Shown here: positions 1-61,311 of the stretch, one piece after another
Layout: each line of letters begins with the position of its first letter
How positions within the stretch are numbered: the stretch's first letter is position 1
Assembly (NCBI GenBank): GCA_964583975.1
Contig: CAZOXU010000011.1
Coordinates: 1-61,311 of the forward strand
Source: an uncultured Planctomycetales bacterium
GTDB lineage: Bacteria; Omnitrophota; Gorgyraeia; Zapsychrales; Fredricksoniimonadaceae
Length of the DNA stretch: 61,311 nt
Reading direction: 5' to 3'
The notes under the pieces: model-generated
The model's input: only the letters and a program-made list of their open reading frames with translations
Told to the model about the DNA's origin: nothing
Databases searched by the model: none
Program-made: the position numbers and the translations under genes

Positions 1-24
1 CCTTCAACCGCGATTCCACCACAT
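1..24. repeat. Terminal direct repeat, copy 1 (ccttcaaccgcgattccaccacat), identical to 61288..61311
   Basis: The first 24 nt of the window exactly equal the last 24 nt. Confidence 0.95.
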
Positions 25-616
25 ACGCTGTCCCTGCCTCGGCGTTCTCGTAAACCACCGCCTTCTCTGGAACGATCCACACCTTGTTAAAGGTATTCAC
101 TGGTATATTGGTTGTGTTGTACTTACTTTGGGCCTCTTCATAGATTCTCTTCCAAAACTTCTTTCCCACTTCATCTTCTGGATAAATGAGCGAGGCAGTG
201 ATTTGTTTGAGCATGTAGTCTTCTGCCAACAAATCTCGGCCCATCTCCGTTAAACCAAAGCTCTCTGGCACGATACGGTCTTTTTCGTAGGGAGATAGAT
301 TAACCCAGAGATCTCGCTCTGGCACGGTAAGGCTGGCGAGGAAATATTTGATGAGTCGATTGGCTTCATCATGTAGGGGCACAGCATGCTGTGCCCCTAC
401 ATCGCCCTGATCCATAATAAATTCAAATTGAAATGGATTATCCGGATGGACCTTGATGCCTTTCAAGATGGCTGGATTGACAGCGGGGCTGAGACTGACT
501 CGGACACCGGGTGTGGGTAAACGAATTTCCTGGGCCGAGGCAGGCAAAGGCCCAAAGGTATTAATTAAGAAAGCCACAAGGATGGCTATGTGGATTAATG
601 GGGTCGGTTTTCTCAT
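1..616 (-). CDS. 5' part (about 205 codons) of a giant-exoprotein family gene: signal peptide plus conserved N-terminal module; the ORF runs off the window start
   Basis: My own translation from the ATG at 616..614 reads MRKPTPLIHIAILVAFLINTFGPLPASAQEIRLPTPG...LWVNLSPYEKDRIVPE...NTFNKVWIVPEKAVVYENAEAGTAYVVESRLK. There is no stop before position 1. By eye it is clearly homologous to residues ~40-215 of the 33305..38098 protein. It is absent from the supplied ORF track because it has no stop in the window. Confidence 0.8.
   Translation of the reverse strand, partial: MRKPTPLIHIAILVAFLINTFGPLPASAQEIRLPTPGVRVSLSPAVNPAILKGIKVHPDNPFQFEFIMDQGDVGAQHAVPLHDEANRLIKYFLASLTVPERDLWVNLSPYEKDRIVPESFGLTEMGRDLLAEDYMLKQITASLIYPEDEVGKKFWKRIYEEAQSKYNTTNIPVNTFNKVWIVPEKAVVYENAEAGTAYVVESRLK
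373..400. repeat. 28-nt perfect GC-rich palindrome GTAGGGGCACAGCATGCTGTGCCCCTAC inside coding sequence
   Basis: The sequence is its own reverse complement. It shares the GTAGGGGC...GCCCCTAC termini with the 59-nt elements at 60939 and 61188. It encodes VGAQHAVPL in frame in a variable loop of the N-terminal module. Confidence 0.9.
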
Positions 617-691
617 ATCTATATAAAGTAAAGCATATATATTTTAGAAATCAAGACCTGGAAGCCTAATCTAAGATAACGCTTTCTTTAT

Positions 692-33304: not shown

Positions 33305-36300
33305 TTATACTTTCGCTAATAACTCTTCCCTACCAGGCACCAAACCTAACAAAGGTCGCATATCAACAATAGGTGTAATATTGAGAATTACTGGACGAAC
33401 GCCAGAAAAATCACCCGCCTGGAACTGCTTAATCATCGCAGGGTCAAAACGGATATCAATCTTCTGACCATCTACATCTATCTTCATATTCTTAGAATTA
33501 AGGTCGATACCACCCTTAGTATCATCATTCTTAGTTGCCATAGCATTATCTGAGAATTTAATTGTTCCACTCGCATTAATCTCTATTTCAACATTGTCTA
33601 AACGGACGGTATCTCCTCTTGTTAATCCATATTTCACTCGAAAAGCTTCAAAGAAATCTTCCAAAGCAATATTTCGACCAGTTTTATTAATAATACTCAC
33701 ATGGTCTCCAATTTGGAAAACTCGAGGATTAATTTGAACACTACTAGGAATAGTATTAGTACCGACCATGGCTGCATCGCTATTAAATTTCCCATCCTTA
33801 ATTAAACCGCTTTGAATTAATTCCTCATCACTTCGCTTCAAAAAAGCTACACCATCATCAATATTTTTTGGCTCCTTCAAATCATGAATATCTTCCCCAG
33901 AGCTTACAAATGCGGCCTTGGTTGATGGCAATTGAGTCACATCCCCTGTTACAGCTTCAAGATAAAAATATCCATCTTTAAACCGCAAATTAAAAGGCAA
34001 TTGATTTTTTAAAATAGTTCTTAATTTATCTACCGCATACACCAGTCTAAAAGCATTGTAGGGCGCACCTTTTTTACCTGCTTCATCTAAAAGTCCAACC
34101 AAGGCAGGACTCGCCTTCACATTGGATGTTTCAATGAGAAAGCTTCTGCCAGTTTTTGTGTTTTTCAAAACATTGCCACCTTTTTGTTTGCTAGGATTAT
34201 TCACCAGCTCTCCGACAACACCATAGCCTCGATCTATTTGGGCCAAAGCAAAGGCAATTTTATCAATACTAACAACACTGTCTTTGGAAAATTTAGTCAG
34301 ATCATTAATGCGGTGACTAGAGATAACCTCAAAATCAGAAAATTCATCAATTAAAGCCCCAGTTATATATTTTCGTTGGCCTTGGCTATCTAAACGAAAT
34401 GCTTGGCCATTTTCTGCTAATTGCATGAAATTATGGCCATGTCCATAAGGCACAGTAGGGCTATTAGGATCAAATTCTAAAACTCCATTGTTGAATTTAA
34501 ATCCATGAAAAGTTGGTTGAACAACAAAGAATATATTGGCAGGAGAAAATCCATAGAAGTTATTTCTGATGAAATCCTCTAAAACGTCTTTTTCGATATC
34601 AGCATTCACATTTACAATTATTTTTTGTTGAGTCAAAACTTCCTGAATATTTCTTTTATTGTCTTTAGCGAGCTGCTCTATGGCCAAACGATAAGCCAAA
34701 ATTTGTCGAGGCCCCATTCCTAGGCGAAGTTTGGCATCTGTAGCGCTAGCCTTACCTAATTCTTGAGCTAATTCCCAAATGTCTAAACCATACATCGGAC
34801 CTCTCTTCAATCGAGTAGCAGCACCAGCAAAAATAAATTGTGGAATATAAGCTCCATTTAACAAAGTATTCTTTGCATGCTGTTGAAATTCTGCTGCTTG
34901 ATCAGAACTCAAAAAGCTAGATAAACTAACAACATCATCAGCAAGTTTTAAATCATCAGCTTTGGATTGAGCATATATATTTGATCCATCGACAATTTTA
35001 TTAATCTCCCCATCTAAACGTTTAACCTCATCTACATTATTGGTAGTCACAGCTTGATAATAGGCATCCAATAGCGGCTGAATACTTGCTTTAACCGATA
35101 TTACTTTATCAGACAAAGCTTTTTCTAAGCTTGCAATAGGTTTTCCAACCATAGCTCTATCTAAATTCCTTACGCGAAGAAAATCCCCAATATTAGTACC
35201 TCCTTCAGATTGCCATTGATAAAAATCTCCTAAAAGGGTATTTGCATTCAAATCATCTCTCTCTGCTATTTCAGTGATTCTTTCCCTAACATTTTGAGAA
35301 ACTTCCTCGATTGATTTTGGCCGGCCACTTGCTTTAGCTTCAACCGTTCTTTCTTGAACAAAGGCTTGAAGATTATTATTTCCTGTAGATTGTATGGCAC
35401 GAAATACTTCTAAAAGCTTTCCTCGTTGAAGACCTGCCCCTTCTGCTTGCTGCCATATTCCTTCCATTTCCAAATCTTTCATTTCACTAGCTGGTTGCAG
35501 TATTTTATTTCTCACAGTAGTAATTTTAGCCAAAACAAAACTCCTTAAATCAGCCGCACCCGCCATAGATTGTCTTCTTTGAAATTCTAAAAGTAAACGG
35601 CCTCGGCTTAACCCCACATTTTCTGCCTGTTGCCAAATATCTTCGGTAACAGAAGTATTCGGCACATCACCACCATCAATATCTCCTTCATTTAATAATC
35701 GACTAGCAACAGCAGCAGCGACTGCTGCACCAACAGCGGAAGCATTCTCAACCTTTACAATCTCTACATCTTCTGGAGTAAAACCTTCTAATTTTAAAGC
35801 TTCCTCAAATCCTTGTTTCACTAATTCATTCTTCCAATAGACGCTGCCATCAATCACAATTTTCTTTTTTCCAGAAACTGTCACATTTTTTAAAACCTGA
35901 GCAATGGCTGAACCTAATAGAAGTCCAGATCTCTTAAGTAAAGTCTGGCTAATATTCTGCATTTCAAATGCTTCAGCTTCTGAAACAGAGATATCCTCTC
36001 CTAAATACTCCTTAATCAAACTAATTAATTCCAACTTGTCATTGGCAATAGCTAGCTTACCTAATAATACGCTCTCTAAATCATCCCATTTTGAACTTTG
36101 TGCAATTTGGAGGTAATTCCCTTCTTTCGCAGACTTGGCAAGATTTCTAATATTCTCACGCAAAAGCTGAACTAGATATTTTCCTGAAATCATCTTCTCA
36201 AACATTTGTTTTCCCTGAGGCTCTGAATCTCTCAAAACGACTTCATCGCTTTCAGTTCGTAAACTTTCGGGAATATTATTGGTCGAACCTGCCTCTAAAT

Positions 36301-38098
36301 TAATGATATTGCCCTGCGCATCTGTGATTGAAAAATTAGAACCTGTCCCTAAAATGATTCCACTGACAGCTCCAGGAGAAGCTAATTGAGTGGCAATCGT
36401 ATCGTTTAAGACGCCAACAACCTCTAATTTTCTATTATTAAGAGCTGTTTCTAACAATGCTCCTGGATTTTTATTTTGAATATCTTGAAGTTCCCAACCT
36501 TTAGCGAGACGTAAAACTGTTGCACCTCCCATAGATTGATGTGACATAGGAAAAGCAAAAGACAAACCAATCTTATAATCTTTCGATGTTTCTAAAGGTA
36601 ATTCCTTAATTTTGGAAGCCACAAAACTAAAAACATCTGCACTAGTTCTCATTTTTAACTCTTCAGGGAATTTTGCGTCTATTTGTTGAATGGTCGTAGG
36701 TTTTTGACCTGGCTGCATCCTTACTAAAACAATCTTTAAATTTGTTCCACTAAAATCAACTCCAATATAATCTCCAGATTCTCTTCCATTCGCAGGTTTA
36801 AAATATGAATTTAAATAACTCACCCCACCCACACCGCTTTTGCCATTTAATGTTGTTATTAAATTTTCCGCAAAAACATTAGACACTCTTCTAATCGATT
36901 CCGTATCCAACTCAAAACTACTTCTCATAGCTAAATCTGTTTTAGATTTCGGAGTCGTGACTCTTATATTAAAAAGACGTCCTTTTGCAGGATTTACGAT
37001 AAATCTAGCTGCATCGTTATCCCTAGGATTACTCGTTTGAGCTAGATCTAATTTTCCAAGCACCCCACCAGAGAAATATTTTCTTGGGATTACCTGTCCA
37101 TTTTGTACGTCTTCCTTAATATAGTTAAATACACCCTTCTTATACGCCTTTAAGTATTCCTTATAAATCTTCTCCTTAATGGTCTTATCTGCAGTGTCCA
37201 CCCCATTAACCTTAGCTTTATTGCTGTAAACTTGATTAAGCAACGCATCTTTAAGATTTTTCTTATACCAAGCTGCTAAAATCATCGAGTGAAAAATTTG
37301 ACGGAGATTAGCAAAATTCTTTCCCGTATTAACTTCTTTTTCCAGCTCAGGAAGAACGATATCGCGAACGATCTGGGATCCTAAATTATTGGTATCTTGG
37401 GCAACCTGATTCACGGTTTGTTTCTGCGAGGCCAAATAATCTTCTTCCAACATCACCTTCAAATGGCTTGCCACAACGAATGCTGTGTTATCATGCACAA
37501 AAACTTTAGCCTTATCAGCCACAATCCATACCTTATTAAATGTATTTACTGGAATCTCAGTTGATCCATAGAGTGCCTGAGCTTTAGCGTAAACCTTGTT
37601 CCAAAACGCCTTGCCTAATTCTTTCTCGGGATAGATCAATGATGCTGTTAATTGCTTGAGGATATAGTCTTGGGCCAGCATGTCACGTCCCATATCGGTC
37701 TGTCCTAATTCATTAGGAATAATGCGGTCTTTTTCATAAGGTGAAAGGTTAACCCATAAATTTTCTTCGGGAATGGTTAACGAAGCTAAAAAATATTTGA
37801 TGAGCTTTTCAGATTCTGTTTTTAATTGCTCTTGACCGTTGGACAAACCTGAATTTCCTGTATCCACAATAAAATCAAATAAGATGGGGTTCTCTGGATG
37901 AACGCGCAAGCCCTTAACCATCATAGGCACATAATTCTCGGTTAAACTGATCATGGTACCTGGTATGGGAAGACCCAATTCTGCGGGAGATTGAGCTAGA
38001 GCTCGAACTGGAGAAAGAAAGCTAACAATAAAACATACATTAATAACAATTGTTAAACAACGAAAAGCAAACGATTCTTTTTGTCGAGGATTCAACAT
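33305..38098 (-). CDS. Giant modular exoprotein 1 (1,597 aa): signal peptide, shared N-module, hexokinase domain, 3x repeat, UDP-sugar pyrophosphorylase-like domain, small module, shared C-module
   Basis: Uninterrupted 4.8-kb ORF. Its N- and C-terminal modules are homologous to the 54890..61311 ORF. Domain motifs are listed in the sub-features and findings. Confidence 0.88.
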   Translation of the reverse strand: MLNPRQKESFAFRCLTIVINVCFIVSFLSPVRALAQSPAELGLPIPGTMISLTENYVPMMVKGLRVHPENPILFDFIVDTGNSGLSNGQEQLKTESEKLIKYFLASLTIPEENLWVNLSPYEKDRIIPNELGQTDMGRDMLAQDYILKQLTASLIYPEKELGKAFWNKVYAKAQALYGSTEIPVNTFNKVWIVADKAKVFVHDNTAFVVASHLKVMLEEDYLASQKQTVNQVAQDTNNLGSQIVRDIVLPELEKEVNTGKNFANLRQIFHSMILAAWYKKNLKDALLNQVYSNKAKVNGVDTADKTIKEKIYKEYLKAYKKGVFNYIKEDVQNGQVIPRKYFSGGVLGKLDLAQTSNPRDNDAARFIVNPAKGRLFNIRVTTPKSKTDLAMRSSFELDTESIRRVSNVFAENLITTLNGKSGVGGVSYLNSYFKPANGRESGDYIGVDFSGTNLKIVLVRMQPGQKPTTIQQIDAKFPEELKMRTSADVFSFVASKIKELPLETSKDYKIGLSFAFPMSHQSMGGATVLRLAKGWELQDIQNKNPGALLETALNNRKLEVVGVLNDTIATQLASPGAVSGIILGTGSNFSITDAQGNIINLEAGSTNNIPESLRTESDEVVLRDSEPQGKQMFEKMISGKYLVQLLRENIRNLAKSAKEGNYLQIAQSSKWDDLESVLLGKLAIANDKLELISLIKEYLGEDISVSEAEAFEMQNISQTLLKRSGLLLGSAIAQVLKNVTVSGKKKIVIDGSVYWKNELVKQGFEEALKLEGFTPEDVEIVKVENASAVGAAVAAAVASRLLNEGDIDGGDVPNTSVTEDIWQQAENVGLSRGRLLLEFQRRQSMAGAADLRSFVLAKITTVRNKILQPASEMKDLEMEGIWQQAEGAGLQRGKLLEVFRAIQSTGNNNLQAFVQERTVEAKASGRPKSIEEVSQNVRERITEIAERDDLNANTLLGDFYQWQSEGGTNIGDFLRVRNLDRAMVGKPIASLEKALSDKVISVKASIQPLLDAYYQAVTTNNVDEVKRLDGEINKIVDGSNIYAQSKADDLKLADDVVSLSSFLSSDQAAEFQQHAKNTLLNGAYIPQFIFAGAATRLKRGPMYGLDIWELAQELGKASATDAKLRLGMGPRQILAYRLAIEQLAKDNKRNIQEVLTQQKIIVNVNADIEKDVLEDFIRNNFYGFSPANIFFVVQPTFHGFKFNNGVLEFDPNSPTVPYGHGHNFMQLAENGQAFRLDSQGQRKYITGALIDEFSDFEVISSHRINDLTKFSKDSVVSIDKIAFALAQIDRGYGVVGELVNNPSKQKGGNVLKNTKTGRSFLIETSNVKASPALVGLLDEAGKKGAPYNAFRLVYAVDKLRTILKNQLPFNLRFKDGYFYLEAVTGDVTQLPSTKAAFVSSGEDIHDLKEPKNIDDGVAFLKRSDEELIQSGLIKDGKFNSDAAMVGTNTIPSSVQINPRVFQIGDHVSIINKTGRNIALEDFFEAFRVKYGLTRGDTVRLDNVEIEINASGTIKFSDNAMATKNDDTKGGIDLNSKNMKIDVDGQKIDIRFDPAMIKQFQAGDFSGVRPVILNITPIVDMRPLLGLVPGREELLAKV
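33899..34921 (-). other. UDPGP/UAP-like nucleotide-sugar pyrophosphorylase domain within giant protein 1
   Basis: FAGAATRLKRGPMYG (compare AGGQGTRLG), VPYGHGHNF (compare P-x-G-x-G) and NPSKQKGGNVL (the K-GG region). Residues ~1060-1400. Confidence 0.55.
35699..36901 (-). other. Hexokinase-family (actin-fold sugar kinase) domain within giant protein 1
   Basis: Ordered motifs IGVDFSGTNLKIVLV, GLSFAFP, LAKGW, VLNDTIAT, ILGTGSN, NLEAGS, QMFEKMISGKYL, IDGSVY and ASAVGAAVAAAVA (residues ~400-800). Confidence 0.85.
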
Positions 38099-38257
38099 TC
38101 ATAATCTCCATAAAATAGATTCATAAATGGGAAAAACTAAGAACTAATTAAATATGCTGAAAGTATAACATACTCTTATCAAAAATCCAACCTATGGACT
38201 ATTCATAATAAGATGTAAAGTATTGAAATATAACATCTTATAGAAATATCAATTAAA

Positions 38258-39826
38258 TTATAAGAGTTTATTTAAATTGTCGCGCGCAGGGATATAGTTA
38301 GGATTAATTCCTAAGGCTGACTTCAAAATAGCTTCTGCTTGGACCTTCTCTCCTTTAAGAATATGACATACCGCCACATTATTAAGCAAAACTACATCTT
38401 TCGGGGTTATGCCTAAGGCTTTATTAAGAGCATCAATTGCTTCATCCAAACGTCCATTTTGCATATAAATGCTAGATAAATCAGAATAAATTTCTTTGAT
38501 ATACCCCAAATAAAAATCTCGGGCCTTCTCATTGCTGGCTTTCTTTACATAGGTCTGCATGATTGCAAGGGCTCTTTGGTAAGAAACGATGGCAGCATCG
38601 TATTGCTTATCACCATAATAAGTCTTAGCTAAAAGAATATGCCCCCGAGCAAATTTATTCTCATAAGCCATGGTCCGTTCAAATAAAATTACCTGACTCC
38701 TCCAAAAAGTGTTTTGGTAAATGGCTAAACCCATTAAATAAACACAAATCATCACACTCAACCCTAAAATCATTTTAGGAGATGTGATACGTTTAAGAAC
38801 TATGGCCAAGACCAACACAATACCTACCATCGGTAGATAAAGAAAATGTTCGGCTGTTAAAATCAAAGAATACTCATTAATGAGAGGCACTATATTTAAT
38901 ACAGGAAAAAGACAAACAATAAACCAAAGTAGACCAAATACGATATCTTTTCGAGTATCAACAAATTTCCTTATAAAAATGTACAAACTAGCTGCCAGTA
39001 TCCCTAAACCTAAGAAGCCACCCCGAGGGTCTGCGAGAATATCGGTGTTACGATAATAATGAAGATCATTTGGCAAAATCAACAAACGTAGATACATGAC
39101 AATGGTATTAGGAATCGAAAGAAGTCTTAAATAAAACTCTTTGGGAGAAGCAAGGATATCATCTATCAAATGTGAACCGCTCACTACCTGACGAAGTATT
39201 AGAAATCCTACGGTTAAAATAGTAAAAATCAACCACATCACAAAACGGTCTTTTTTGTTCCTATACCAATCGATCAGAACAATCAAAGGCAATACAATAA
39301 TAGCCTGCTCCTTGGTTAGAAGAGCAAAAACAAAATAGACACAAGTTAATATAGGACGTTGTTGAAGATATCCTCGTAAAGTGAGTAATATAAAAAATGT
39401 ACAGGCTAAATTAGAAAATCCTGATATGCATGCGACCGCTTCTGTTTGTATAGGATGAATTAAAAATAACAAACTGATCCCAAAGGTCATCATCTGGGAG
39501 AATTTCAAGGTCCTTAATAACGAGCATAATAAAAGACCATTGAAAAGATGAACGATCACATTGACGCTATGAAAATAGAACGCATTAAACCCAAAGAAAT
39601 AATATTGCAGACGGTTAAGAAATTCTAAGAACGGCCTATAGTACGAATTAAGTCCAGATCCTAGCGCTGCACTATTATTGGGTTGGAAAAAGATCTCAGA
39701 TAAGTTTAAACCACTAATTTGAGTATTTTGGAGAATAAAAATAATATCATCGTGAACGAACGGATGATTGAGGGCGTTAAAGAAAACTAAAAATGTAGCC
39801 GTCGCAAGAATCAGAAGCAAAGGCAT
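38258..39826 (-). CDS. TMTC-like polytopic membrane protein with C-terminal TPR repeats (GT-C-fold protein O-glycosyltransferase-like, DUF1736 type)
   Basis: N-terminal FNALNHPFVHDDIIFILQN motif typical of TMTC-type proteins, about 10 TM helices and then TPR repeats (AKTYYGDKQYDAAIVSYQRAL...). Confidence 0.68.
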   Translation of the reverse strand: MPLLLILATATFLVFFNALNHPFVHDDIIFILQNTQISGLNLSEIFFQPNNSAALGSGLNSYYRPFLEFLNRLQYYFFGFNAFYFHSVNVIVHLFNGLLLCSLLRTLKFSQMMTFGISLLFLIHPIQTEAVACISGFSNLACTFFILLTLRGYLQQRPILTCVYFVFALLTKEQAIIVLPLIVLIDWYRNKKDRFVMWLIFTILTVGFLILRQVVSGSHLIDDILASPKEFYLRLLSIPNTIVMYLRLLILPNDLHYYRNTDILADPRGGFLGLGILAASLYIFIRKFVDTRKDIVFGLLWFIVCLFPVLNIVPLINEYSLILTAEHFLYLPMVGIVLVLAIVLKRITSPKMILGLSVMICVYLMGLAIYQNTFWRSQVILFERTMAYENKFARGHILLAKTYYGDKQYDAAIVSYQRALAIMQTYVKKASNEKARDFYLGYIKEIYSDLSSIYMQNGRLDEAIDALNKALGITPKDVVLLNNVAVCHILKGEKVQAEAILKSALGINPNYIPARDNLNKLL

Positions 39827-39828
39827 TA

Positions 39829-40182
39829 TTATGAGGCAAATTCAGTTTTTAGTTTGGCTGTATTAGCTTTAATTTCTTCAAATTGACCATCAATGGTTTT
39901 GGTTAAATCAACCATCCCATCGGTGCTATTGGCCCTGGCTAACTGTTCAAGTTTAAGACACGAATCATACATACGTTTAGCTGAAATATTTCCAGAAGCA
40001 CCTTTCATGGAATGAGCCACCTCTTTGATCTTAGTAAAATCGCTGGCTGAGACTGCCTCTCCCAGATCTTTGCGCTTATTTACAAAATCCTCGATATAAA
40101 TATCTAGTAACTCTAAAAGCAATTCTTTGTCATCCTGGACTCTGTCTAACACATCTTTTAAATCAATGATATCTTCTGCCAT
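39829..40182 (-). CDS. Histidine phosphotransfer (Hpt) protein
   Basis: 117 aa with the HSMKGASGNISA phospho-His motif. Confidence 0.8.
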   Translation of the reverse strand: MAEDIIDLKDVLDRVQDDKELLLELLDIYIEDFVNKRKDLGEAVSASDFTKIKEVAHSMKGASGNISAKRMYDSCLKLEQLARANSTDGMVDLTKTIDGQFEEIKANTAKLKTEFAS

Positions 40183-45558: not shown

Positions 45559-45972
45559 ATGCATCAAACGGTTGCCATTTTATTAAGCCTCTGTATCGTC
45601 TTTAATGTTTACACGTTGGGCTCGCAAGTCATCCAACATCAACAACAGCCTTCCAATATGCAATTTCACAATTTGGGAGATCAATTTAAAGAAATCGCGC
45701 CGCTTTTTAATAAAATATCCAAAGCAGGTTATTATACGGATAAAGATACTAATATACCGGTCGTAATTGCTCAGTTTGAGCAAGCCCAATATCACCTTGC
45801 CCCTACTATTTTGGACCTTAATAATACTGATTACCCTTTAGTTATTTTTGACTGCACCTTACCAGCGATTGCTTTAACTAAAATGCGAGAACTAGGGCTT
45901 CAACCTATTAAAGCCAATAAATTTGGAACCATTTTGGCCGTAAACCCAAAATTTAGTGAATTAAAACCATGA
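45559..45972 (+). CDS. Hypothetical secreted protein
   Basis: 137 aa with an N-terminal signal-like segment (VAILLSLCIVFNVYTLGS). Its end overlaps the downstream start (ATGA). I recognise no family. Confidence 0.55.
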   Translation: MHQTVAILLSLCIVFNVYTLGSQVIQHQQQPSNMQFHNLGDQFKEIAPLFNKISKAGYYTDKDTNIPVVIAQFEQAQYHLAPTILDLNNTDYPLVIFDCTLPAIALTKMRELGLQPIKANKFGTILAVNPKFSELKP

Positions 45973-47261
45973 TGTATCTTTTAGCACTTACCATTGCAGT
46001 CTCAATTGGCGTTTTAGCGATCCGACTTATCACTCAAAATCGCCTAGCTCGGGAATTAAATTTCTTTCTGGGGGCTGCCTTAGGATTAGGCATCACTAGT
46101 CAGATCATCTTCTACGTGCAGCTGGTTGGCTATAACTTCAATCATTTCCTGCCCGTAGCCATTAGCTTTGCTCTTTTAGGCGTCTTATTATGGCTTAACA
46201 AAACTAGTGCCAGGCACCAGATTCCTAGACATCCACAAAAAAACTGGTGCCTGGCACTAGTTTTATCTGCCGTAGCTATTCCTTTGTGGCTTGAAGCTAA
46301 TCACTATCCCCTAGGTGGCTGGGATGCTTGGTCGTGCTGGAATTTAAAATCCAAATTCATCTACCTAGGGGAACATGCTTGGAAGGATATGTTTGATCCT
46401 GTTTTGTGGCGCAGCAATACGGGTTATCCTTTGGCCCTACCAACACTAAATGTCTGGTTCTGGCAATGGACGGGATGGACCCAGCAAGTAAGCATGTACA
46501 ATGCCATTGTTATAACCCTATTAAATGCTGGAGTTTTGCTTTCGGGTCTTTGCGTACTTGGAGTGTCTACACTTTATGCATCCTTAATCACCTTTTGTAT
46601 ATTCACTCTGAGTTTTGGCAATACTCTGTGCATCAGTCAGTATAGTGACATCCTTTTTAGCCTTTATCTACTTTCTGCATTTGTTTGCTATTTTTATTTT
46701 GAAAAATCTAAAGACAATCGCCTGCTAATACTGACTGCTATTTTCATTGGATTACTCAGTTTTACTAAGAATGAAGGAATTGCAGCCTCTGGCATCTTAA
46801 GCTTACTTATTCTTCTACGTCGCCCCCAGCCATGGTTATTCATCATTGCCTTAGTAATTTCAGCTCTGCCAACTATTATCTTCACCCTTACCATGGCTCC
46901 ACATGGTGGGGTTTTTATTAATGGTTTACTGTCGGCGGATCACCCTTCAAGCGGATCAAGACTTATTTATATTCTGACAAATACCTTATACGAATTTATT
47001 TCTATGAAATGGGCCGGACTTTGGATCATCGCAGCCATAGGACTGACTCTTTCGAAAGGCCGATCTTTAAAACAACCCTTGGTCACGGTTGGTCTATTTA
47101 TGATCTGCTTCTTGACCGTTACCTTAACTTACTATCAAATCAACACCTTCTTTGATGATATCCGATGGTGGATGGACAATACACTCAATCGCATTGTCTT
47201 TGCGCTCATGCCGAGTGTATTTCTTTGGATGGGTTTAAGTCTTTTTAAGAAGGACGCTTGA
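45969..47261 (+). CDS. Polytopic integral membrane protein, possibly a GT-C-type glycosyltransferase
   Basis: 430 aa with about 11-12 hydrophobic helices and aromatic-rich loops. The function is inferred only from topology and from the neighbouring GT2 and sugar-modification genes. Confidence 0.5.
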   Translation: MMYLLALTIAVSIGVLAIRLITQNRLARELNFFLGAALGLGITSQIIFYVQLVGYNFNHFLPVAISFALLGVLLWLNKTSARHQIPRHPQKNWCLALVLSAVAIPLWLEANHYPLGGWDAWSCWNLKSKFIYLGEHAWKDMFDPVLWRSNTGYPLALPTLNVWFWQWTGWTQQVSMYNAIVITLLNAGVLLSGLCVLGVSTLYASLITFCIFTLSFGNTLCISQYSDILFSLYLLSAFVCYFYFEKSKDNRLLILTAIFIGLLSFTKNEGIAASGILSLLILLRRPQPWLFIIALVISALPTIIFTLTMAPHGGVFINGLLSADHPSSGSRLIYILTNTLYEFISMKWAGLWIIAAIGLTLSKGRSLKQPLVTVGLFMICFLTVTLTYYQINTFFDDIRWWMDNTLNRIVFALMPSVFLWMGLSLFKKDA

Positions 47262-54889: not shown

Positions 54890-57800
54890 TTATGATGCCG
54901 CTGCCAGCTGGGTGACTGGTGTCTGGGTACTGATCCCTAAAAACTTCCTGAGATCAGTCATGGGCTGGATATTGATAATCACGGGATAAAAACCTGGGGC
55001 GTTTTGCAGTTGGGCAAGCTGTGCTGGGTCTAAATTAAACTTTATACCTCCATTAGCATTTTGGGTTTGTAGAAATTTGTCAGAGGTAAGGTCAATACCA
55101 CCTTTTTTGATCATTGCGCTATCTCTGACTAATGAACCTTTCTTAAATAAACTTGAAGCATTAGTCATAGCCGCATCTTCTGCCTTAGACATATCTAAAA
55201 TCTTCGGAAGGATTTCAACACCCAAAGACAATATTCCTGACAGATGCGCGCTAGGCGATCCTGGAATACCTTTTCCTTGAAAATAACTCGGCGGCTTTCC
55301 TAAAGAGCCGAAAAGTCTCTGACTATCTTCGGCAGGCGTCAACTCATCATCTACGACAGTGGCAAGCAAAACATTCTGACCATCCTTGGATGGCACTGCA
55401 GAAGCCAATTGATCCAAGTTTAAATCTCTCATAACTGAATCGACATCTTCTGGAACGAGCCCTTTTTGACGGAATAATTCTTGAATACCCGCATATCGAT
55501 CTCCCTGACTCCAAAGAAGGTGAGAATAATTAACGATAGGGACTATTGTGAAAAGATTTCGCACTAATGGATCTATCAGGTAGGTGCTTGTTGCCACACT
55601 ACCCGTAATGCTTTGCCCTGTTACAGATATTCTAGAGGGATCTATTTCTGGACGATCAGCAAGCCATCGTACAGAAACCAAGGTATCGGCAATCGATTGC
55701 ATAATAAAAGTTTTAAACTTTTCTGCATCAAAATCCAAAGCCACATATCGTTGTACAGAATTCATTCCTTGTGTTCCAGCAGCTGAACGTTTAGCGTATA
55801 AAGGCATTCCTACTTCCAATACCGCAACGCCTTTGCTAGCTAAATAAATAGAAATAAGACGGGCCAGCGTATCTTGTTCATAAAAACTACACAAAACGAC
55901 TCCGGGTAAAAGTTTTCCATCAGTTGTTTTAGGAAGGAAATATCTCGCATAAACATGTTCTGAATTAGGAAAGGCGGATTTATTAAAGGCAGATCGATAG
56001 GTTAGTTCTTGAATAGAAAACGGCTGAGCTTCAGGTGGAGATGTCTTTAATCTTTCTACCATTTGAAGCAGATCAGCAAGCAAAGGAGAATTTTTCATCA
56101 ATTTCTTTAACTGACCGAGAATATAATTAAGAGCTGCATCATCAGTTAAGGCCAAAATTTCTTCTTGTGTCAATGAGCGCAATTGATAATCAACGGTGTT
56201 AATATTTCCCTGAGGATCTCGATCTATCTTTAAATTCGTATCAGTTGGAAGAAATGCGATGTTCTGAGATAGATTTAAACCTGTTAGTTGAGATAATTCT
56301 TCTACAACATCTCTACCTTGTGCCATCGCAGCATCTTGCTTAGGATCGCTCTCCGCTTCCCAATTACCTTTAAAATCTGGAACGACTTCAAAATCATAAT
56401 CAAAAATGTCAAAAGTAATGGTTGATTCAATTAATACCGGTACTGGAAACTCTCCTTCGCGAGAGGGCGCCAACCATTGTAAATCAAAATTTCCAAGAAC
56501 ATCTTGGTCTAAATGAATACCCACCTTATTCAAACGTGCGACAAGAAGTTGAAAATCATGCCGAATGAGTTCATAAACATACGTTTGAAATTCTTCCCAT
56601 CTATTAGGATCTATTCCATAGGCCGCTAAGACATCACGATACCTTTCATCTTCTTTCAACAAGTCATAAGCTTGTTCACGTCCAGAATTATTGGAAAAGA
56701 ACGAAGAACTACCGATACGGGTACTCTGAATCCAGGATGGAGATCTAGAAAAATCTGGATCAGGTTCAAACTTACCGGTTTTTAAATTTCCTCGAAATAA
56801 AAAACGACTTTCGTAAGATTTTCCGTCTAATTTAAAAGCGTTAAAAACAGATTCCATTCCTCCAGAATCATAAATTCTTTCATTCAAAACAACTAATTTC
56901 CATAAACCATCTAAAATCTCAACGGCATCGGTTGTTGAGGTATCTAATGTAAAATGCATACTGTTTAAATCTGGGTCTCTATAAGGAGTAATTTTGTAGT
57001 TATCAAAATACTTAATGACTTTCTCTTGATAAGGATCTTGAAATGAAGGTGAATTGGTATAAGAAAATGTGATGGTCAGATTAGAATCTTTTCCTTTATG
57101 AATATAAAAAATTCCTCTTCCATAGGAACCCGTGTTGGGTTTGAAAATAACTGGCAAAGAAATCTCACCAGACACAATTTGTTGGGCTACTTCTCTAAAA
57201 TTAGCGACATCTCTTGGGTCTGTTAAAGCTTGTAAATAGGATTCGTCTGAAAAACGCATTTCGTCTAATTCTTGAATCACATCAGAATCTCTTTTAAAAG
57301 CAACAAACCAATCGGGCTGACGAACCTTACCGCCCTTAAGTAATTCCCTCATCCCCCACTTACTAGCCAAAAGTCGCTGTATATCAAGAATACTAACCTT
57401 GGCGCTTTGCATTGCTGCATCAACTTTGTAAACTTCTCGCTTCATAGAATCATAAAAAACCGGCTCAGCATTACTCAACTTCTTCCTTCTCCAATTGATG
57501 ATTCCCACTTGAGGGTCAACCATAGATTGGACACCTAGATTAACCATAAGGGCACTCGCTTGAATGCTATGGACAAAAGCTACAACGATGATCTTCCTTC
57601 CTCCATTAAATTTCTTTCTTAATTTCATCCTAGCTTTAAAATCATCCAATCCTTTCTTAGTTCGAATCAGAAGATTTAAATAACTTTCCGAAGGAGAATG
57701 ACCTGAAATACTAGGTAATGTTGCAGTCGCATCCATGCCTCTATTAAAACGATATAAGAACTCTCGCACACCTCTTCCTTCTTTTTGAATATCTGCTACC

Positions 57801-60800
57801 CCTTTTTCATCGAGCAATCCCAAGGATATCTCATCTAAAAAGCTTTCCACATTTGGTTCAATCTTATGCCCTGTTTTATCTTTAACTAGATCCAGAAAAT
57901 CTTGGGCAGTTTGTTGAGTACGATCTTTGGAACTAGTTATAACAACCACATCTGCATTAGATTCAATGTCAGGCCTTAGTTTAGAAAACAAAATCTTTGC
58001 CCCCGCTAGTGACTGTTCCTTACCTTTTAGAGTTAATAAATTTCTTCTTCCTGGAATTAAAATACCTGCATTAGAGTATGTTTGCCCATGTCTTTCCCAA
58101 TAAAAACTAAAATCATCTTGCGAAATTGAAACAAGAGGATCTATTCCATTGAATTTAATTTGACCAGATCCATTAACTAAAACCTTCTCATCTAACTCTT
58201 TTAAGGGTTTCCATTCCGATGGTCTGAGTAAATAAAATCGTGAGATTCCTTTAAAATTTCTCAATACCACCTCTCCTAATTTAATTTCATTAGGATTAAT
58301 TTTCGCAAATCGAATACGCAGCACCGCACCGTCTTCATCTCGCAAAACATCCCTTCTGTCTAAAAGACTCACCTCCGCTTCAGGATGAATTTTCTGAGCA
58401 TAAGAACGCATACTTAATAGACCTTCACCTTTTCCTCCAATTCTGTGATTACCAGCTAACTTTTGAGCTAATTTCTCTTCAGTAGTTTCAGCCTCTTTGA
58501 TAGATAATCCATTGTTTACTACATCAATATTTACAAAACCATCTTTTTCATAAACATAAAAATCAATTTTTAAACTTTTGTTGTCTGGTATTTTACCAAT
58601 GTCTATTCCATGTATAAAAGCATCCGCAGAATTTTCTATGGCATGAATAAATATAGATTCTAACAAAGAAACCACAAGTCTTTGATGACCGTCTTTATGG
58701 ACGACCAGCATTTTCTGGGATCCAAAATCTGAACTCTGATTTCCTAAAATAGAGGCAATTTTGTGATCCATAGGAAGGACGATTTCTTCTAATCTTCCCC
58801 ATACTCTTTGTAGTCCTTCTTTTTTAGAAAGGCTGGTTAATATTGGGAAATCTTCTTTAGAAAATTCGATCGTTCCTAAAGAAAATAACTTTTCCGCCTC
58901 CATCGCTGCATCTTTTGTGGTCGATCTTAATAAGGATTCCAAATCTTGTCTTACGCTCTTATCTTTAGGATCAAGCTCTATTGCTTTTCGAAAGGCCGCT
59001 TCTGCCCTCTTAAAATCATGTAACTTGGTTAGCACGCGTCCAAGACTTTTATAGGCATTTGTATACCGGGGGCTCTCTTCTATTGCTTTTAAATAAGCCT
59101 CCTCCGCTCCTTCTAAGTCACCTTTATTTTCCAATAAAAATCCTAAATTGTAACGTAGCCAAGAATTTCTTGAATCAAGCTTTATGCCTGTTCGAAAAGA
59201 CGCTTCAGCTCGTGCTAAATCACCCTTCTTCATCAATAGAAGTCCAAGATTGTTATAAGCGATTTGGTATTTAGGATTTATCTTTAATGCTGTTAAATAT
59301 GCTGTTTCAGCTCCTGTTAAATCACCTTTACTGTCTAACAAATCCCCTAAAGAAACGTATGCACTCATATCTTTAGGATCAAGCTCTATTTCTTTATGAT
59401 GCGCAGCCTCTGCTCCTGCCAAGTCTCCTTTATGCATCAGAAAAATTCCTAAATTCTGATAAAAACTTCCAATTATTCCTAATTGCCACGGTAAAATCCT
59501 AACAACCTGCAAATCATTCTTTCCTTTAAAATCAAATGTTAAACCTTCATTAGAGATATCTTTTTCGATTGGCAATTTCACAATAAAACTAAAATCTAAT
59601 TCTCCCGAAGGCCTCAACTCCTCAGAAGGTTCTGCGATATAGTATCGTCCATCAGATAACCTAACTAATATAAAGACATGATCTATTTCTGAAACCAGGT
59701 AAACCTTCTTAATTCCAATTGCATCCAAGTACAATGCCATTAAAGCACTTCTGCCGACACAATTAATTTCCTTAGTAAGTCGTATCCGAATTGGAGAGGC
59801 TTCATTTAAAGCAGAATAATCTTTATCTGTCCACCCGTGCATTTTGATAATTAACCGCATAATTTTATTGATGGCTTGGATTTCAAGCTCTGCACCAGCT
59901 AAAGGCGATCTCTCTCTTGCCTTTTGTATTTCTGCCTTTAATTGCTCTGTATCAATCTGATCAAAACGCTTAGCTTTCCTTTGAAACCCAAACGACTCTA
60001 ATGAAGAGAGCTTTGGTGACTCATTCTTAGATCTTGCTAAATCTTCTTTTAATAAATGCATCCCTCTTAAATAAGTTTGATTTTCTATATCAATCTGGAC
60101 ATGGCGTACGGTCAATTGAATGGCTTTGGTCATAAGAGTCTGCAGCTCATCAAGTTTCTGTGAATCTTTTAACCCAAGCCATTCTTTAATCTCTCTTTCT
60201 TGCTCCAAATCTAGGGGCTTTTGATTTGAAGAAACATGATCCACATGAAATCCATCCGGGATTTTCAAGTCACTATTGTCTTGAGCCAAAATGTATCCTA
60301 AAGCATCAAATAGACCAATAACCTGTTCATGTTCTTGAGTTTTTTGATTCTCATATCTCTGAGCCAAATACCTTGCAGCGTCTCTAAACTTTCCAGAAAT
60401 TCTAGGCAAGGTTCGTTCCTTATCGCTCAAAGGAAGATCCCTAATCTTTTGTGTTAATTCTATAGTTTCTTTAACGTTTATGTCTTCTGGCAACTTGAAA
60501 TGATAAAAAATTTCCCCATTGGTATTCGCAAGCTTTTCAGGTACTAGAAAATCAACCGCTTCTTGACCTCGCGGAACAAATTGCACAACAATATGATCTG
60601 TTAATGGCAGCCAGGCGTATTGATCCTTCTGTCCTTTCTGCGAGCCCGCAAAACGCTTGCGTTCTTGCTCAGTTTCCCATACTGGTTTACTTAAAACTTG
60701 ATCAAGTTTAACTTCTATTCTCATTTTCCCTGCAAGACTAGTCATGGCCGAATCACCAATCACAGATGGGTCTTGACTAATTCTCATAGCTTGAGAAGGT

Positions 60801-61311
60801 TGCAACAACATTCCTCCAGAGAAATATTTGCGAGGCACAGGCTGCTGGGTTATAGGATCAGGCTCTTCTTTGATGTAGTTGTACACGCCTTTTTTGAATG
60901 CTTGGAGGTACCGTTGATAAATTGATTCAACATCCTCGGTAGGGGCAGGCCCCTGTGCCTGCCCGGCTTGAGGGCGACCACGGGGGGTCGCCCCTACGAT
61001 TTTATTCTTATCCGTATACACCCGAGCCAGGATGCTGTCCTTTATTTTCTTCTTGTACCACGTAGCTAGGATTAAAGAATTGTAAACTTGTCTAAGTTGG
61101 GCGAAGTTTTGTCCTTCATTGACTTCGCGGGTGAGTTCGGGGATGACGATTTCACGGATGATGTTATTTCCCAATATATTGGTATCCGTAGGGGCAGGCC
61201 CCTGTGCCTGCCCTTCTTGAGGGCGACCACGGGGGGTCGCCCCTACACCGTTTTTGGATTCCGATAAATAATCTGCCTCTAGCATCACCTTCAACCGCGA
61301 TTCCACCACAT
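54890..61311 (-). CDS. Giant modular exoprotein 2 (>2,139 aa, 5' end off the window edge and apparently continued at 616..1): shared N-module, unknown region, transglutaminase-like Cys protease, TPR, GHKL ATPase-like, histidine phosphatase, ATP-grasp-like, alpha/beta hydrolase-like, shared C-module
   Basis: Uninterrupted 6.4-kb ORF open at the window end. The first codon in the track is an edge GTG, not a real start. Its N- and C-terminal modules are homologous to the 33305..38098 protein. Confidence 0.88.
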   Translation of the reverse strand, partial: VVESRLKVMLEADYLSESKNGVGATPRGRPQEGQAQGPAPTDTNILGNNIIREIVIPELTREVNEGQNFAQLRQVYNSLILATWYKKKIKDSILARVYTDKNKIVGATPRGRPQAGQAQGPAPTEDVESIYQRYLQAFKKGVYNYIKEEPDPITQQPVPRKYFSGGMLLQPSQAMRISQDPSVIGDSAMTSLAGKMRIEVKLDQVLSKPVWETEQERKRFAGSQKGQKDQYAWLPLTDHIVVQFVPRGQEAVDFLVPEKLANTNGEIFYHFKLPEDINVKETIELTQKIRDLPLSDKERTLPRISGKFRDAARYLAQRYENQKTQEHEQVIGLFDALGYILAQDNSDLKIPDGFHVDHVSSNQKPLDLEQEREIKEWLGLKDSQKLDELQTLMTKAIQLTVRHVQIDIENQTYLRGMHLLKEDLARSKNESPKLSSLESFGFQRKAKRFDQIDTEQLKAEIQKARERSPLAGAELEIQAINKIMRLIIKMHGWTDKDYSALNEASPIRIRLTKEINCVGRSALMALYLDAIGIKKVYLVSEIDHVFILVRLSDGRYYIAEPSEELRPSGELDFSFIVKLPIEKDISNEGLTFDFKGKNDLQVVRILPWQLGIIGSFYQNLGIFLMHKGDLAGAEAAHHKEIELDPKDMSAYVSLGDLLDSKGDLTGAETAYLTALKINPKYQIAYNNLGLLLMKKGDLARAEASFRTGIKLDSRNSWLRYNLGFLLENKGDLEGAEEAYLKAIEESPRYTNAYKSLGRVLTKLHDFKRAEAAFRKAIELDPKDKSVRQDLESLLRSTTKDAAMEAEKLFSLGTIEFSKEDFPILTSLSKKEGLQRVWGRLEEIVLPMDHKIASILGNQSSDFGSQKMLVVHKDGHQRLVVSLLESIFIHAIENSADAFIHGIDIGKIPDNKSLKIDFYVYEKDGFVNIDVVNNGLSIKEAETTEEKLAQKLAGNHRIGGKGEGLLSMRSYAQKIHPEAEVSLLDRRDVLRDEDGAVLRIRFAKINPNEIKLGEVVLRNFKGISRFYLLRPSEWKPLKELDEKVLVNGSGQIKFNGIDPLVSISQDDFSFYWERHGQTYSNAGILIPGRRNLLTLKGKEQSLAGAKILFSKLRPDIESNADVVVITSSKDRTQQTAQDFLDLVKDKTGHKIEPNVESFLDEISLGLLDEKGVADIQKEGRGVREFLYRFNRGMDATATLPSISGHSPSESYLNLLIRTKKGLDDFKARMKLRKKFNGGRKIIVVAFVHSIQASALMVNLGVQSMVDPQVGIINWRRKKLSNAEPVFYDSMKREVYKVDAAMQSAKVSILDIQRLLASKWGMRELLKGGKVRQPDWFVAFKRDSDVIQELDEMRFSDESYLQALTDPRDVANFREVAQQIVSGEISLPVIFKPNTGSYGRGIFYIHKGKDSNLTITFSYTNSPSFQDPYQEKVIKYFDNYKITPYRDPDLNSMHFTLDTSTTDAVEILDGLWKLVVLNERIYDSGGMESVFNAFKLDGKSYESRFLFRGNLKTGKFEPDPDFSRSPSWIQSTRIGSSSFFSNNSGREQAYDLLKEDERYRDVLAAYGIDPNRWEEFQTYVYELIRHDFQLLVARLNKVGIHLDQDVLGNFDLQWLAPSREGEFPVPVLIESTITFDIFDYDFEVVPDFKGNWEAESDPKQDAAMAQGRDVVEELSQLTGLNLSQNIAFLPTDTNLKIDRDPQGNINTVDYQLRSLTQEEILALTDDAALNYILGQLKKLMKNSPLLADLLQMVERLKTSPPEAQPFSIQELTYRSAFNKSAFPNSEHVYARYFLPKTTDGKLLPGVVLCSFYEQDTLARLISIYLASKGVAVLEVGMPLYAKRSAAGTQGMNSVQRYVALDFDAEKFKTFIMQSIADTLVSVRWLADRPEIDPSRISVTGQSITGSVATSTYLIDPLVRNLFTIVPIVNYSHLLWSQGDRYAGIQELFRQKGLVPEDVDSVMRDLNLDQLASAVPSKDGQNVLLATVVDDELTPAEDSQRLFGSLGKPPSYFQGKGIPGSPSAHLSGILSLGVEILPKILDMSKAEDAAMTNASSLFKKGSLVRDSAMIKKGGIDLTSDKFLQTQNANGGIKFNLDPAQLAQLQNAPGFYPVIINIQPMTDLRKFLGISTQTPVTQLAAAS
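55310..55942 (-). other. Alpha/beta-hydrolase-like domain in giant protein 2
   Basis: LLPGVVLCSFYEQ..., the IDPSRISVTGQSITGSVA nucleophile-elbow-like segment, and the later VVDDELTP. Confidence 0.42.
56390..57172 (-). other. ATP-grasp-like domain in giant protein 2
   Basis: LPVIFKPNTGSYGRGIFYI (K-P-x-x-G-S-x-G-x-GI) followed by a ~250-aa alpha/beta region. Weak, motif-level only. Confidence 0.4.
57515..58117 (-). other. Histidine phosphatase (phosphoglycerate-mutase-like) domain in giant protein 2
   Basis: The FYWERHGQTYSN RHG motif, with a downstream IVVAFVHSIQASAL second-His region. Confidence 0.5.
58385..58657 (-). other. GHKL (HATPase_c-like) ATP-binding domain in giant protein 2
   Basis: N-box-like IHAIENSADA, G1-like VVNNGLSI and G2-like GGKGEGLLSM, in the canonical order. 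Confidence 0.45.
58940..59482 (-). other. Five to six tandem TPR repeats in giant protein 2
   Basis: Recurrent 34-aa units: GDLAGAEAAHHKEIELDPKD, GDLTGAETAYLTALKINPKY, GDLARAEASFRTGIKLDSRN, GDLEGAEEAYLKAIEESPRY, HDFKRAEAAFRKAIELDPKD. Confidence 0.85.
59636..59830 (-). other. Transglutaminase-like / papain-fold cysteine protease core in giant protein 2
   Basis: INCVGRSALMALYLDAIGI (Cys517) ... IDHVFILVRLSDGRYYIAEP (His544, then an acidic residue). This is the typical C-H-D/E spacing of transglutaminase-like domains. Confidence 0.5.
60939..60997. repeat. 59-nt GC-rich double-hairpin element, copy A, in frame in giant gene 2
   Basis: GTAGGGGCAGGCCCCTGTGCCTGCCCGGCTTGAGGGCGACCACGGGGGGTCGCCCCTAC. 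Stems GGGCAGGC/GCCTGCCC and GGGCGACC/GGTCGCCC, with terminal inverted repeats GTAGGGG/CCCCTAC. It encodes VGATPRGRPQAGQAQGPAPT. Confidence 0.92.
61188..61246. repeat. 59-nt GC-rich double-hairpin element, copy B, in frame in giant gene 2
   Basis: Identical to copy A except for 2 nt in the linker (CCCTTCTTGAGG versus CCCGGCTTGAGG). It encodes VGATPRGRPQEGQAQGPAPT. Confidence 0.92.
61288..61311. repeat. Terminal direct repeat, copy 2, identical to 1..24
   Basis: The last 24 nt of the window exactly equal the first 24 nt. Confidence 0.95.

Follow-up and report, generated by a model that had tools for sequence, protein, structure and literature searches.

Two very large genes in the 61,311 nt stretch analysed here (the window; contig CAZOXU010000011.1 of the Omnitrophota assembly GCA_964583975.1), giant 1 (g1) and giant 2 (g2), encode proteins in which a four-residue peptide, D-x-A-M, marks borders between modules. 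The motif is real and non-random, lies at junctions, is kept in orthologues and is selected as a peptide. Among related genomes the type of junction motif is lineage-specific, and the types are mutually exclusive. The reading favoured here, with a probability of about 0.5, is that D-x-A-M is the cleavage site of a processing protease, which would split the chain into separate enzymes.

Judged from their sequences, g1, g2 and a third gene of the window are members of a large Omnitrophota family that has no database annotation. They share a conserved N-terminal module (N-module) and, where the ends lie within the window, a C-terminal module (C-module). The third N-module, at 2..643, means that at least three paralogues lie within the 61-kb stretch.

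33305..38098, minus strand: g1, a complete family member of 1597 amino acids (aa) with signal peptide, N-module, three payload segments, a small domain and C-module; its stop codon is at 33305-33307
54890..61309, minus strand: g2, the second family member, its N-terminus cut off by the window end
2..643, minus strand: third family gene, represented by the first ~214 aa of the N-module only, 54% identical to g1; it runs off the left window end

Similarity between g1 and g2 is confined to both ends of the proteins. The N-modules are 47% identical (over the part of g2 inside the window) and the C-modules 42% identical over ~60 aa. Both C-modules (g1 aa 1521-1597, g2 aa 2067-2139) carry an invariant GGI[DN][LFM] and a PVIxxIxP...LLG tail.

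Position of D-x-A-M in the two giants

An earlier note on this DNA had placed five copies of D-x-A-M in g1 at the coordinates given below, and all five proved to be in frame and precisely there. The modules of g1 and the motif sites of both proteins are as follows, all on the minus strand.

37994..38098 (aa 1-35): Sec-type signal peptide (MLNPRQKESFAFR, hydrophobic core, ALA-Q), recognised by heuristic only
37064..37993 (aa 36-345): conserved N-module, WVNLSPYE to RKYFSGG
36926..36937 (aa 388-391): DLAM, junction joining the tail of the N-module to the hexokinase unit
35708..36925 (aa 392-797): hexokinase unit (Pfam Hexokinase_1, 1.2e-32; Hexokinase_2, 1.8e-25)
35171..35647 (aa ~818-976): three copies of a ~45-aa helical repeat (copies 1 and 2, z=14; copy 3, z ~3)
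35150..35161 (aa 980-983): DRAM, junction preceding the pyrophosphorylase-like unit, its Met aligned with residue 1 of stand-alone homologues
33779..35149 (aa 984-1440): unit resembling UDP-sugar pyrophosphorylases (UDPGP/UAP-type)
33767..33778 (aa 1441-1444): DAAM, junction following the pyrophosphorylase-like unit
33551..33766: 72-aa segment between DAAM and DNAM
33539..33550 (aa 1517-1520): DNAM, junction opening the C-module
33308..33538 (aa 1521-1597): C-module of subtype A (GGIDL ... FDPAMI ... GVRPVILNITP ... PLLGL)
33434..33445 (aa 1552-1555): DPAM, a conserved element inside the C-module, not a junction
60743-60754, 58901-58912, 57410-57421, 56324-56335, 55166-55177 and 55112-55123: D-x-A-M sites of g2

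Four of the g1 sites and all six of g2 are of the junction type. In 20,000 residue shuffles the mean expectation was 0.133 sites for g1 and 0.181 for g2, with a maximum of 3, compared with the observed 5 and 6. Every Ala-Met dipeptide of g1 lies within a D-x-A-M, as do six of the seven in g2. Of the window's 113 stop-to-stop open reading frames (ORFs) that reach 80 aa or more (25,284 aa in all), only the two giants have the motif.

The domain borders that had been proposed around these sites were largely borne out. The Pfam hexokinase match begins one residue past the Met of DLAM (position 6 of the Hexokinase_1 model corresponds to aa 392, and the Met is aa 391). Both lobes, PF00349 and PF03727, exceed their gathering scores (113.7 and 90.2 bits, against 24.3 and 24), and another family member (L051) carries a homologous unit between its D-x-A-M sites 811 and 1252. 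The threefold repeat upstream of DRAM is also present, at the position listed. Neither the repeat nor the 72-aa segment returned a family in Pfam, NCBIfam or PDB sequence searches, and the latter had no Pfam match and no homologue among the loci fetched for the family survey described below.

The label given to the pyrophosphorylase-like unit is reasonable, but weakly founded. A search with aa 984-1440 as a single sequence reached only E=0.089, and there was no Pfam match, PF01704 included. A profile of 12 homologues supports a UDPGP-type assignment, with E=2.5e-5 to PDB 3oc9 and 1.1e-4 to 2yqc over ~115 residues only, so that the unit may, tentatively, be a distant relative of the eukaryote-type UDP-GlcNAc pyrophosphorylases. 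Stand-alone homologues, 430-500 aa long, match the g1 unit over its full length, their residue 1 falling within ~10 aa of Met983, and the unit therefore corresponds to a whole protein with Met at the native start.

At the opening of the C-module, DNAM of g1 is 6 residues upstream of the invariant GGIDL, and DSAM has the same placement in g2, as the earlier note described. It had also noted that the DPAM within the C-module has no counterpart in g2, where FDPAMI is replaced by LDPAQL, and had cautioned that this copy need not be functional. Both points hold. In subtype-A C-modules the element has the context F-DPAM-[VI]-x-x-F. Of such modules from D-x-A-M-type members, 15 of 31 have D-x-A-M at this internal position, compared with 9 of 20 from the remaining members. 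These counts show no covariation with punctuation type, and DPAM is a separate element of the C-module, unlike the junction sites.

Distribution of the motif across the family

Family members begin with a Sec-type signal peptide and the N-module (~310 aa), continue with enzyme cassettes that vary from one member to the next, and end in a C-module of ~75 aa marked by 'GGIDL'. At least 1514 homologues of the N-module were found at E<=1e-3, and the named ones are essentially all from metagenome-assembled genomes of Candidatus Omnitrophota; 558 relatives of the N-module are encoded on contigs of species-representative genomes. Long relatives were taken from genome loci and from the representative library because the first homologue search listed no protein longer than 700 aa. 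The resulting sample comprises 80 fetched loci with 105 members from 51 genomes besides that of the window, and members often occur in tandem, several per genome. Some family genes are broken into consecutive ORFs (L015, 9992-14077; L003, 1136-6133), with a truncated member first and then pieces that are rich in D-x-A-M but have no N-module, a pattern that probably reflects assembly frameshift errors or pseudogenes.

Of 82 complete N-termini, 81 are Sec-like by a heuristic that looks for a K/R n-region, a hydrophobic core (Kyte-Doolittle score of the g1 12-mer, 2.81) and small-x-small afterwards. The N-module of g1 is 56-74% identical to those of 15 homologues (mean column identity of the alignment, 65%), and includes invariant Ser, His, Asp, Lys and Glu residues, such as S119, H212 and D139. 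The payloads are far less conserved than either terminal module. No family or sequence match in Pfam, NCBIfam or PDB was obtained for the N-module or for either subtype of the C-module. An AlphaFold2 model of the N-module from 16 sequences (predicted local distance difference test, pLDDT, 65.6; predicted template modelling score, pTM, 0.54) found nothing below E=0.2 in a Foldseek search of PDB, and the C-module model was unusable (pLDDT 56). Two C-module subtypes are seen among the 105 members (e.g., L054 and L075 versus g1). Subtype A has the form ...F-DPAM-V..F..G.F.GV.PVI..., and subtype B ...LQIKRDGNGVPLP...M.I.GF.PVIINI.P...; both end in P..LLG, and B, like A, lies outside Pfam.

Payloads identified by Pfam in other members include hexokinase, aldose 1-epimerase, isocitrate lyase, malate synthase, class-I aldolase, NAD-epimerase, URO-D, HPr, dCMP deaminase, UDPGP, protein kinase and methyltransferases, along with PGI (E=5.6e-199), PGK (1.6e-103), enolase (5.7e-86), PGM/PMM, NUDIX, CofD and receiver domains. 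The majority of payload sequence has no Pfam match. In two signal-peptide-bearing members the glycolytic units score highly and appear intact: a PGI unit lies between sites 496 and 1136 of L025, and PGK and enolase units lie between sites 1028, 2075 and 2696 of L075.

Across the 105 members there are 231 D-x-A-M sites in 149,246 aa, or 1.55 per 1000 aa, which is 12.6 times the expectation from composition, and D-x-A-M is the sole strongly enriched short pattern outside the N-module. Compared with neighbouring genes the excess is ~25-fold. Non-family ORFs of the same loci (a non-overlapping set) initially contained 54 sites, but 40 of these were in eight ORFs that are fragments of family members, leaving a background of ~14 sites in ~240,000 aa; each 'non-family' ORF with at least two sites turned out to be such a fragment.

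The sequence logo of the sites is D-[A/P/K]-A-M-[LVAIT]-[ASVTG], with near-zero information upstream. At 271 sites Asp is encoded by GAT in 159 cases and GAC in 112, all four GCN codons are in use for Ala, the nucleotide logo shows conservation at forced positions only, and every upstream position carries 0.14 bit or less. With free synonymous positions and nothing conserved in the upstream nucleotides, the target of selection is the peptide and not a DNA site or ribosome-binding site. A recombination site or a ribosome-binding site can be dismissed on the same nucleotide logo.

When domain limits were computed for seven family proteins, none of the 78 sites fell inside a significant Pfam envelope (chance P ~3e-7, estimated from coverage fractions), in agreement with the borders that had been drawn from motifs. 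Several domains stop 2-10 aa short of a site. Position 298 of the 299 in the Aldose_epim model is residue 2884, with a site at 2887, and position 345 of the 346 in URO-D is residue 2393, with a site at 2399; on the other side, position 2 of the HPr model is residue 2409, shortly past the Met at 2402. Among members of the D-x-A-M type, a site lies no more than 80 aa past RKYFSGG in 42 of 50, and no more than 35 aa before GGIDL in 25 of 43. The consensus of 33 full-length members at the latter junction is DxAM-x11-GGIDLN. The median spacing between sites is 220 aa.

An earlier scan of genome contigs with the pyrophosphorylase-like unit found no orthologues of g1. These were then found by an exhaustive search of representatives with g1 aa 984-1597, which gave 76 proteins at E<1e-30. 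The closest homologues in which the unit is embedded keep D-x-A-M at both junctions, the kind of conservation in other genomes that the earlier note had proposed to look for.

P0122 (65% identity): DTAM before the unit, followed by M..., and DKAM after it
P0123 (63% identity): DAAM before the unit and NPAM after it
P0125: DEAM before the unit and DFAM after it
P0126: DEAM before the unit
P0128, P0131, P0141 and P0151: D-x-A-M after the unit

About one third of the members have no D-x-A-M, and their most enriched tetrapeptide is SSPV. The pattern SSP[VIL] is 45 times enriched in these members, and is found shortly past the N-module, four residues before GGINL and directly ahead of receiver domains (SSPI-KKILVVDD). 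It occurs in family ORFs of five genomes (L054, L059, L035, L037 and L057). Two or more D-x-A-M sites are present in 54 proteins and two or more SSPx sites in six, but no protein has both. In one family member (P0134), the pyrophosphorylase-like payload that is bracketed by D-x-A-M in g1 has SSPI ahead of it and SSPV behind it. Codons that are not start codons account for most of the fourth residues of SSP[VIL] (GTT 8, GTC 5 and ATC 4 of 33), and the codon counts rule out that these sites are alternative start codons.

Taking at least one site per 1000 aa as the mark of a clear type, D-x-A-M is the type of 34 of 52 genomes. The window's own genome is among these, with 2.7 sites per 1000 aa and without any SSPx. 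SSPx characterises five of the 52 genomes and [NS]-x-A-M three or four. The type is constant within a genome, across divergent sampled paralogues, and the N-modules of the SSPx-type members are 64-69% identical to those of the D-x-A-M type, as close as they are to one another. Other Omnitrophota giants with the same pyrophosphorylase-like payload, up to 6.8 kilo-amino-acids (kaa) long, have recurrent candidate junction peptides of their own: G-A-R-L-A, with 12 copies in P0146 and also present in P0137 and P0145 (the last labelled Candidatus Omnitrophota), and R-[SA]-E-[VAST]-R, with 11 copies in P0262 and also present in P0247, P0259 and P0204. These giants begin with a different signal-peptide-bearing N-terminus (…VFLIQDAHTNE or …VFHIQTAHGN) and not with the N-module. 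The earlier note had argued that D-x-A-M belongs to the family architecture. This stands insofar as the motif recurs at junctions across the family, but not as to ownership: some genomes of the family use other motifs, and the sequences indicate that D-x-A-M belongs to a lineage rather than to the family as a whole.

Proposed cleavage and competing explanations

In the favoured reading, g1 and g2 would be exported modular polyproteins of an Omnitrophota-specific family, made up of a cleavable Sec signal peptide, the N-module, a string of complete, mostly cytoplasm-type enzymes and the C-module. D-x-A would be the end of one unit, and M the first residue of the next, at the position of its native initiator Met. 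A processing endopeptidase cutting at D-x-A-M would then release the N-module, the individual enzymes and the C-module. Punctuation differs between genomes for the same family and even the same payload, while the sampled paralogues of any one genome agree in type. The motif is therefore most likely read in trans, by a factor that would co-evolve with these sites in the manner of a viral protease and its polyprotein sites. Selection on the peptide, exact enzyme limits, differences between lineages and concerted change across old paralogues together form the signature of such a reader, and cleavage by a processing protease is the simplest reading of that signature. As to the exact cut point in the motif, the cutting enzyme and the place of cleavage, inside or outside the cell, the scheme relies on inference.

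Several observations weigh against cleavage. There is no D-x-A-M between the hexokinase and the threefold repeat of g1, the junction before the C-module is occupied in just 58% of the D-x-A-M-type members, and 10 of 161 spacings between sites are below 20 aa. About 45 of the 105 members, and several genomes (JAEUSC, CAYJXI, MHFY and CAIUQE), have no recognisable punctuation. Enzymes that depend on ATP or S-adenosylmethionine have no obvious workplace outside the cytoplasm, and yet stand behind a Sec signal peptide. No protease is encoded among the window neighbours of g1 or g2, and no gene family is recurrently co-localised, as clustering of the ORFs from the 80 loci gave no non-family cluster in more than 14 loci. 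Pfam detected no peptidase domain in the chains of g1, g2, six further members and 33 more, a scan in which most payload sequence had no Pfam match, so that an unrecognised protease is possible. A Cys/His protease core picked out by eye at g2 aa ~500-560 was dropped, since Pfam gives it no support, and an NCBIfam match of g2 to a PA2778-type peptidase is confined to the TPR part. In substrates of signal peptidase I (internal A-x-A sites), position -3 is small or aliphatic and position -1 is small. The motifs do not fit this rule, as a cut between Ala and Met would put Asp at -3, and SSP[VIL] would put Pro at -1.

The motif might be recognised without being cut, serving each module as a docking or pausing signal for a chaperone, for the export machinery or for the N- or C-module while the chain stays intact. 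Peptide-level selection, position at junctions and lineage-specific alternatives would fit this too, the conservation of the terminal modules far above that of the payloads is what contacts with a common machinery should produce, and the failure to find a protease in the 80 loci or in the Pfam-detectable payloads of 33 members speaks for it too. It is nonetheless judged unlikely, because Met or [VIL] falls exactly at the native first residue and the units are complete proteins of the stand-alone type, which release requires and docking does not; many members also lack the motif altogether. Less likely still is self-processing of the kind known from the cysteine protease domain of MARTX toxins, with the N-module, or another part of the chain, as the protease. 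Every member has an N-module, with the invariant Ser, His, Asp, Lys and Glu residues named above, and there is no conserved partner gene in the 80 loci. Against this, it resembles no peptidase in sequence or fold (at a model pLDDT of only 65.6), the SSPx and D-x-A-M types cannot be separated by N-module similarity although their motifs differ completely, and the GARLA- and RSEVR-type giants are punctuated without it.

Gene fusion offers a further account of the same residues: Met would be the start codon of a captured gene, used for internal initiation, and D-x-A the remnant of a common fusion linker. The alignment of Met with the start of stand-alone homologues suits this account, and the missing Shine-Dalgarno sequence is not decisive, because the source genome makes weak use of such sequences. 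It is improbable, however, given that Asp and Ala are kept as amino acids while synonymous positions are free and no nucleotide signal lies upstream, that most codons at the equivalent residue of SSP[VIL] are not start codons, and that frames remain open across up to 17 units, which internal starts do not need. Scars would also not shift in concert across the old paralogues of a genome, as the motif type does. That D-x-A-M is a product of chance or a by-product of linker composition has nothing but the shortness of the motif in its favour, and can be practically discounted: shuffles never match the observed counts, the enrichments over composition and over neighbouring genes are those given above, and the position is kept in orthologues.

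A wider reading, which builds on cleavage and is held as a tentative and rather doubtful proposal, is that Omnitrophota make a substantial share of their enzymes, intact-looking glycolytic ones among them, as exported polyproteins that are cut by a co-evolving protease at lineage-specific punctuation (D-x-A-M, S-S-P-[VIL], GARLA or RSEVR). If true, this would be a virus-like polyprotein strategy applied genome-wide in a cellular organism, perhaps delivering whole metabolic modules to a host or prey cell, and the punctuation would permit in silico segmentation of even the 10-150-kaa giants. Such delivery would suit a phylum thought to be host-dependent.

Neighbouring features and relation to known systems

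The neighbours of g1 and g2 are ordinary housekeeping genes, among them genes for an aminotransferase, a deaminase, a TPR protein, a hybrid histidine kinase, rRNA methylases, the Mla system, peptide deformylase, lipoyl synthase and GreA. Nearly all genes of the window are on the minus strand; a rare plus-strand ORF of 430 aa, at 45969-47261, has no Pfam match. The lowest guanine and cytosine (GC) content of the window (0.343), with a positive AT skew, is at 38001-40000, a region that spans the TPR-protein gene (38258-39826) directly upstream of g1. Within the N-module of g2, a 62-nt GC-rich element of nested palindromes is present in two in-frame copies that are 95% identical (60936-60997 and 61185-61246). 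It encodes GATPRGRPQ[EA]GQAQGPAPT and sits in two variable loops, the same loops in which homologues carry different short inserts (VIPAKAGIQ, IASEAKQSRE, SLRGAEGDVAISKG and SERSEESP). By their sequences, these inserts look like in-frame insertions of small palindromic repeat elements.

MARTX toxins, such as Vibrio RtxA, have conserved N- and C-terminal regions around a variable array of effectors, and short processing sites at which the effectors are released by proteolysis. The g1 family likewise has conserved ends, variable and unrelated enzyme domains and short sites between them. It differs in that neither RTX or glycine-rich repeats nor a cysteine protease domain were detected in g1 and g2 (by Pfam and NCBIfam), in the Sec signal peptide as opposed to type I secretion, of which no genes lie within the window, in using D-x-A-M where the toxins have Leu-X sites, and in carrying mostly housekeeping-type metabolic enzymes instead of toxins.

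In viral polyproteins (picornavirus 3C, Q|G; potyvirus NIa), a short junction motif varies by lineage and co-varies with the processing enzyme. Complete proteins joined in one ORF, and a short junction motif that depends on lineage, are common to both systems, whereas here the genome is cellular and encodes many paralogous polyproteins, with no protease recognised inside the chains that were scanned. Multi-core precursors of ribosomally synthesised and post-translationally modified peptides, such as the cyanobactin precursor PatE, have short recognition sequences flanking each core that are read by trans-acting proteases. The cassettes of the g1 family are similarly bracketed by repeated short sequences, but they are whole folded enzymes of 70-650 aa where the cores are peptides of 6-10 aa, and a leader-peptide logic is lacking. 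Cargo of type IX secretion has an N-terminal Sec signal peptide and a C-terminal domain that is cleaved, with no conserved N-module and no internal punctuation. The g1 family shares with it the signal peptide and a small conserved module of ~75 aa behind a potentially cut site; the C-module has no sequence match to the C-terminal domain families of that system.

Omnitrophota are widespread, tiny and probably host-dependent bacteria, and their very long multi-enzyme proteins are a standing puzzle. D-x-A-M gives the first candidate cleavage points for such proteins, which are concrete and testable. It also provides a rule for splitting them into units for structure prediction and annotation, and a handle on the processing enzyme, which would be sought as a protease family that co-varies with motif type across genomes. 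The question that is sharpened thereby is what hexokinase, PGK, enolase, PGI, aldolase, kinases and methyltransferases do behind a Sec signal peptide.

The nearest relatives are the Omnitrophota giants described as 'multi-enzyme metabolic cluster' proteins or Archaeovorins (West-Roberts et al. 2023, 10.1101/2023.11.21.568195; Nielsen & Lui 2026, 10.64898/2026.06.07.730766). Post-translational cleavage of these giants has been proposed, with the cleavage points stated as unknown (10.1101/2023.11.21.568195), while cleavage, linkers and motifs are all unmentioned in the later preprint (10.64898/2026.06.07.730766). The g1/g2 family comes from the same phylum and has the same kind of long ORF with a signal peptide or transmembrane segments, and the same strings of sugar-metabolic and glycolytic enzymes, kinases, methyltransferases, receiver domains and TPRs. 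It differs in being defined by an N- and a C-module that are absent from both preprints, and by an explicit junction motif. Its members are smaller cousins of those giants. Full-text literature searches returned no description of the N- and C-modules of the g1 family, of the junction motif or of Omnitrophota polyproteins. The multi-enzyme giants of the phylum and the idea of their cleavage are thus already known, and what the sequences of the g1/g2 family appear to add is a putatively processed type of polyprotein with a concrete junction motif.

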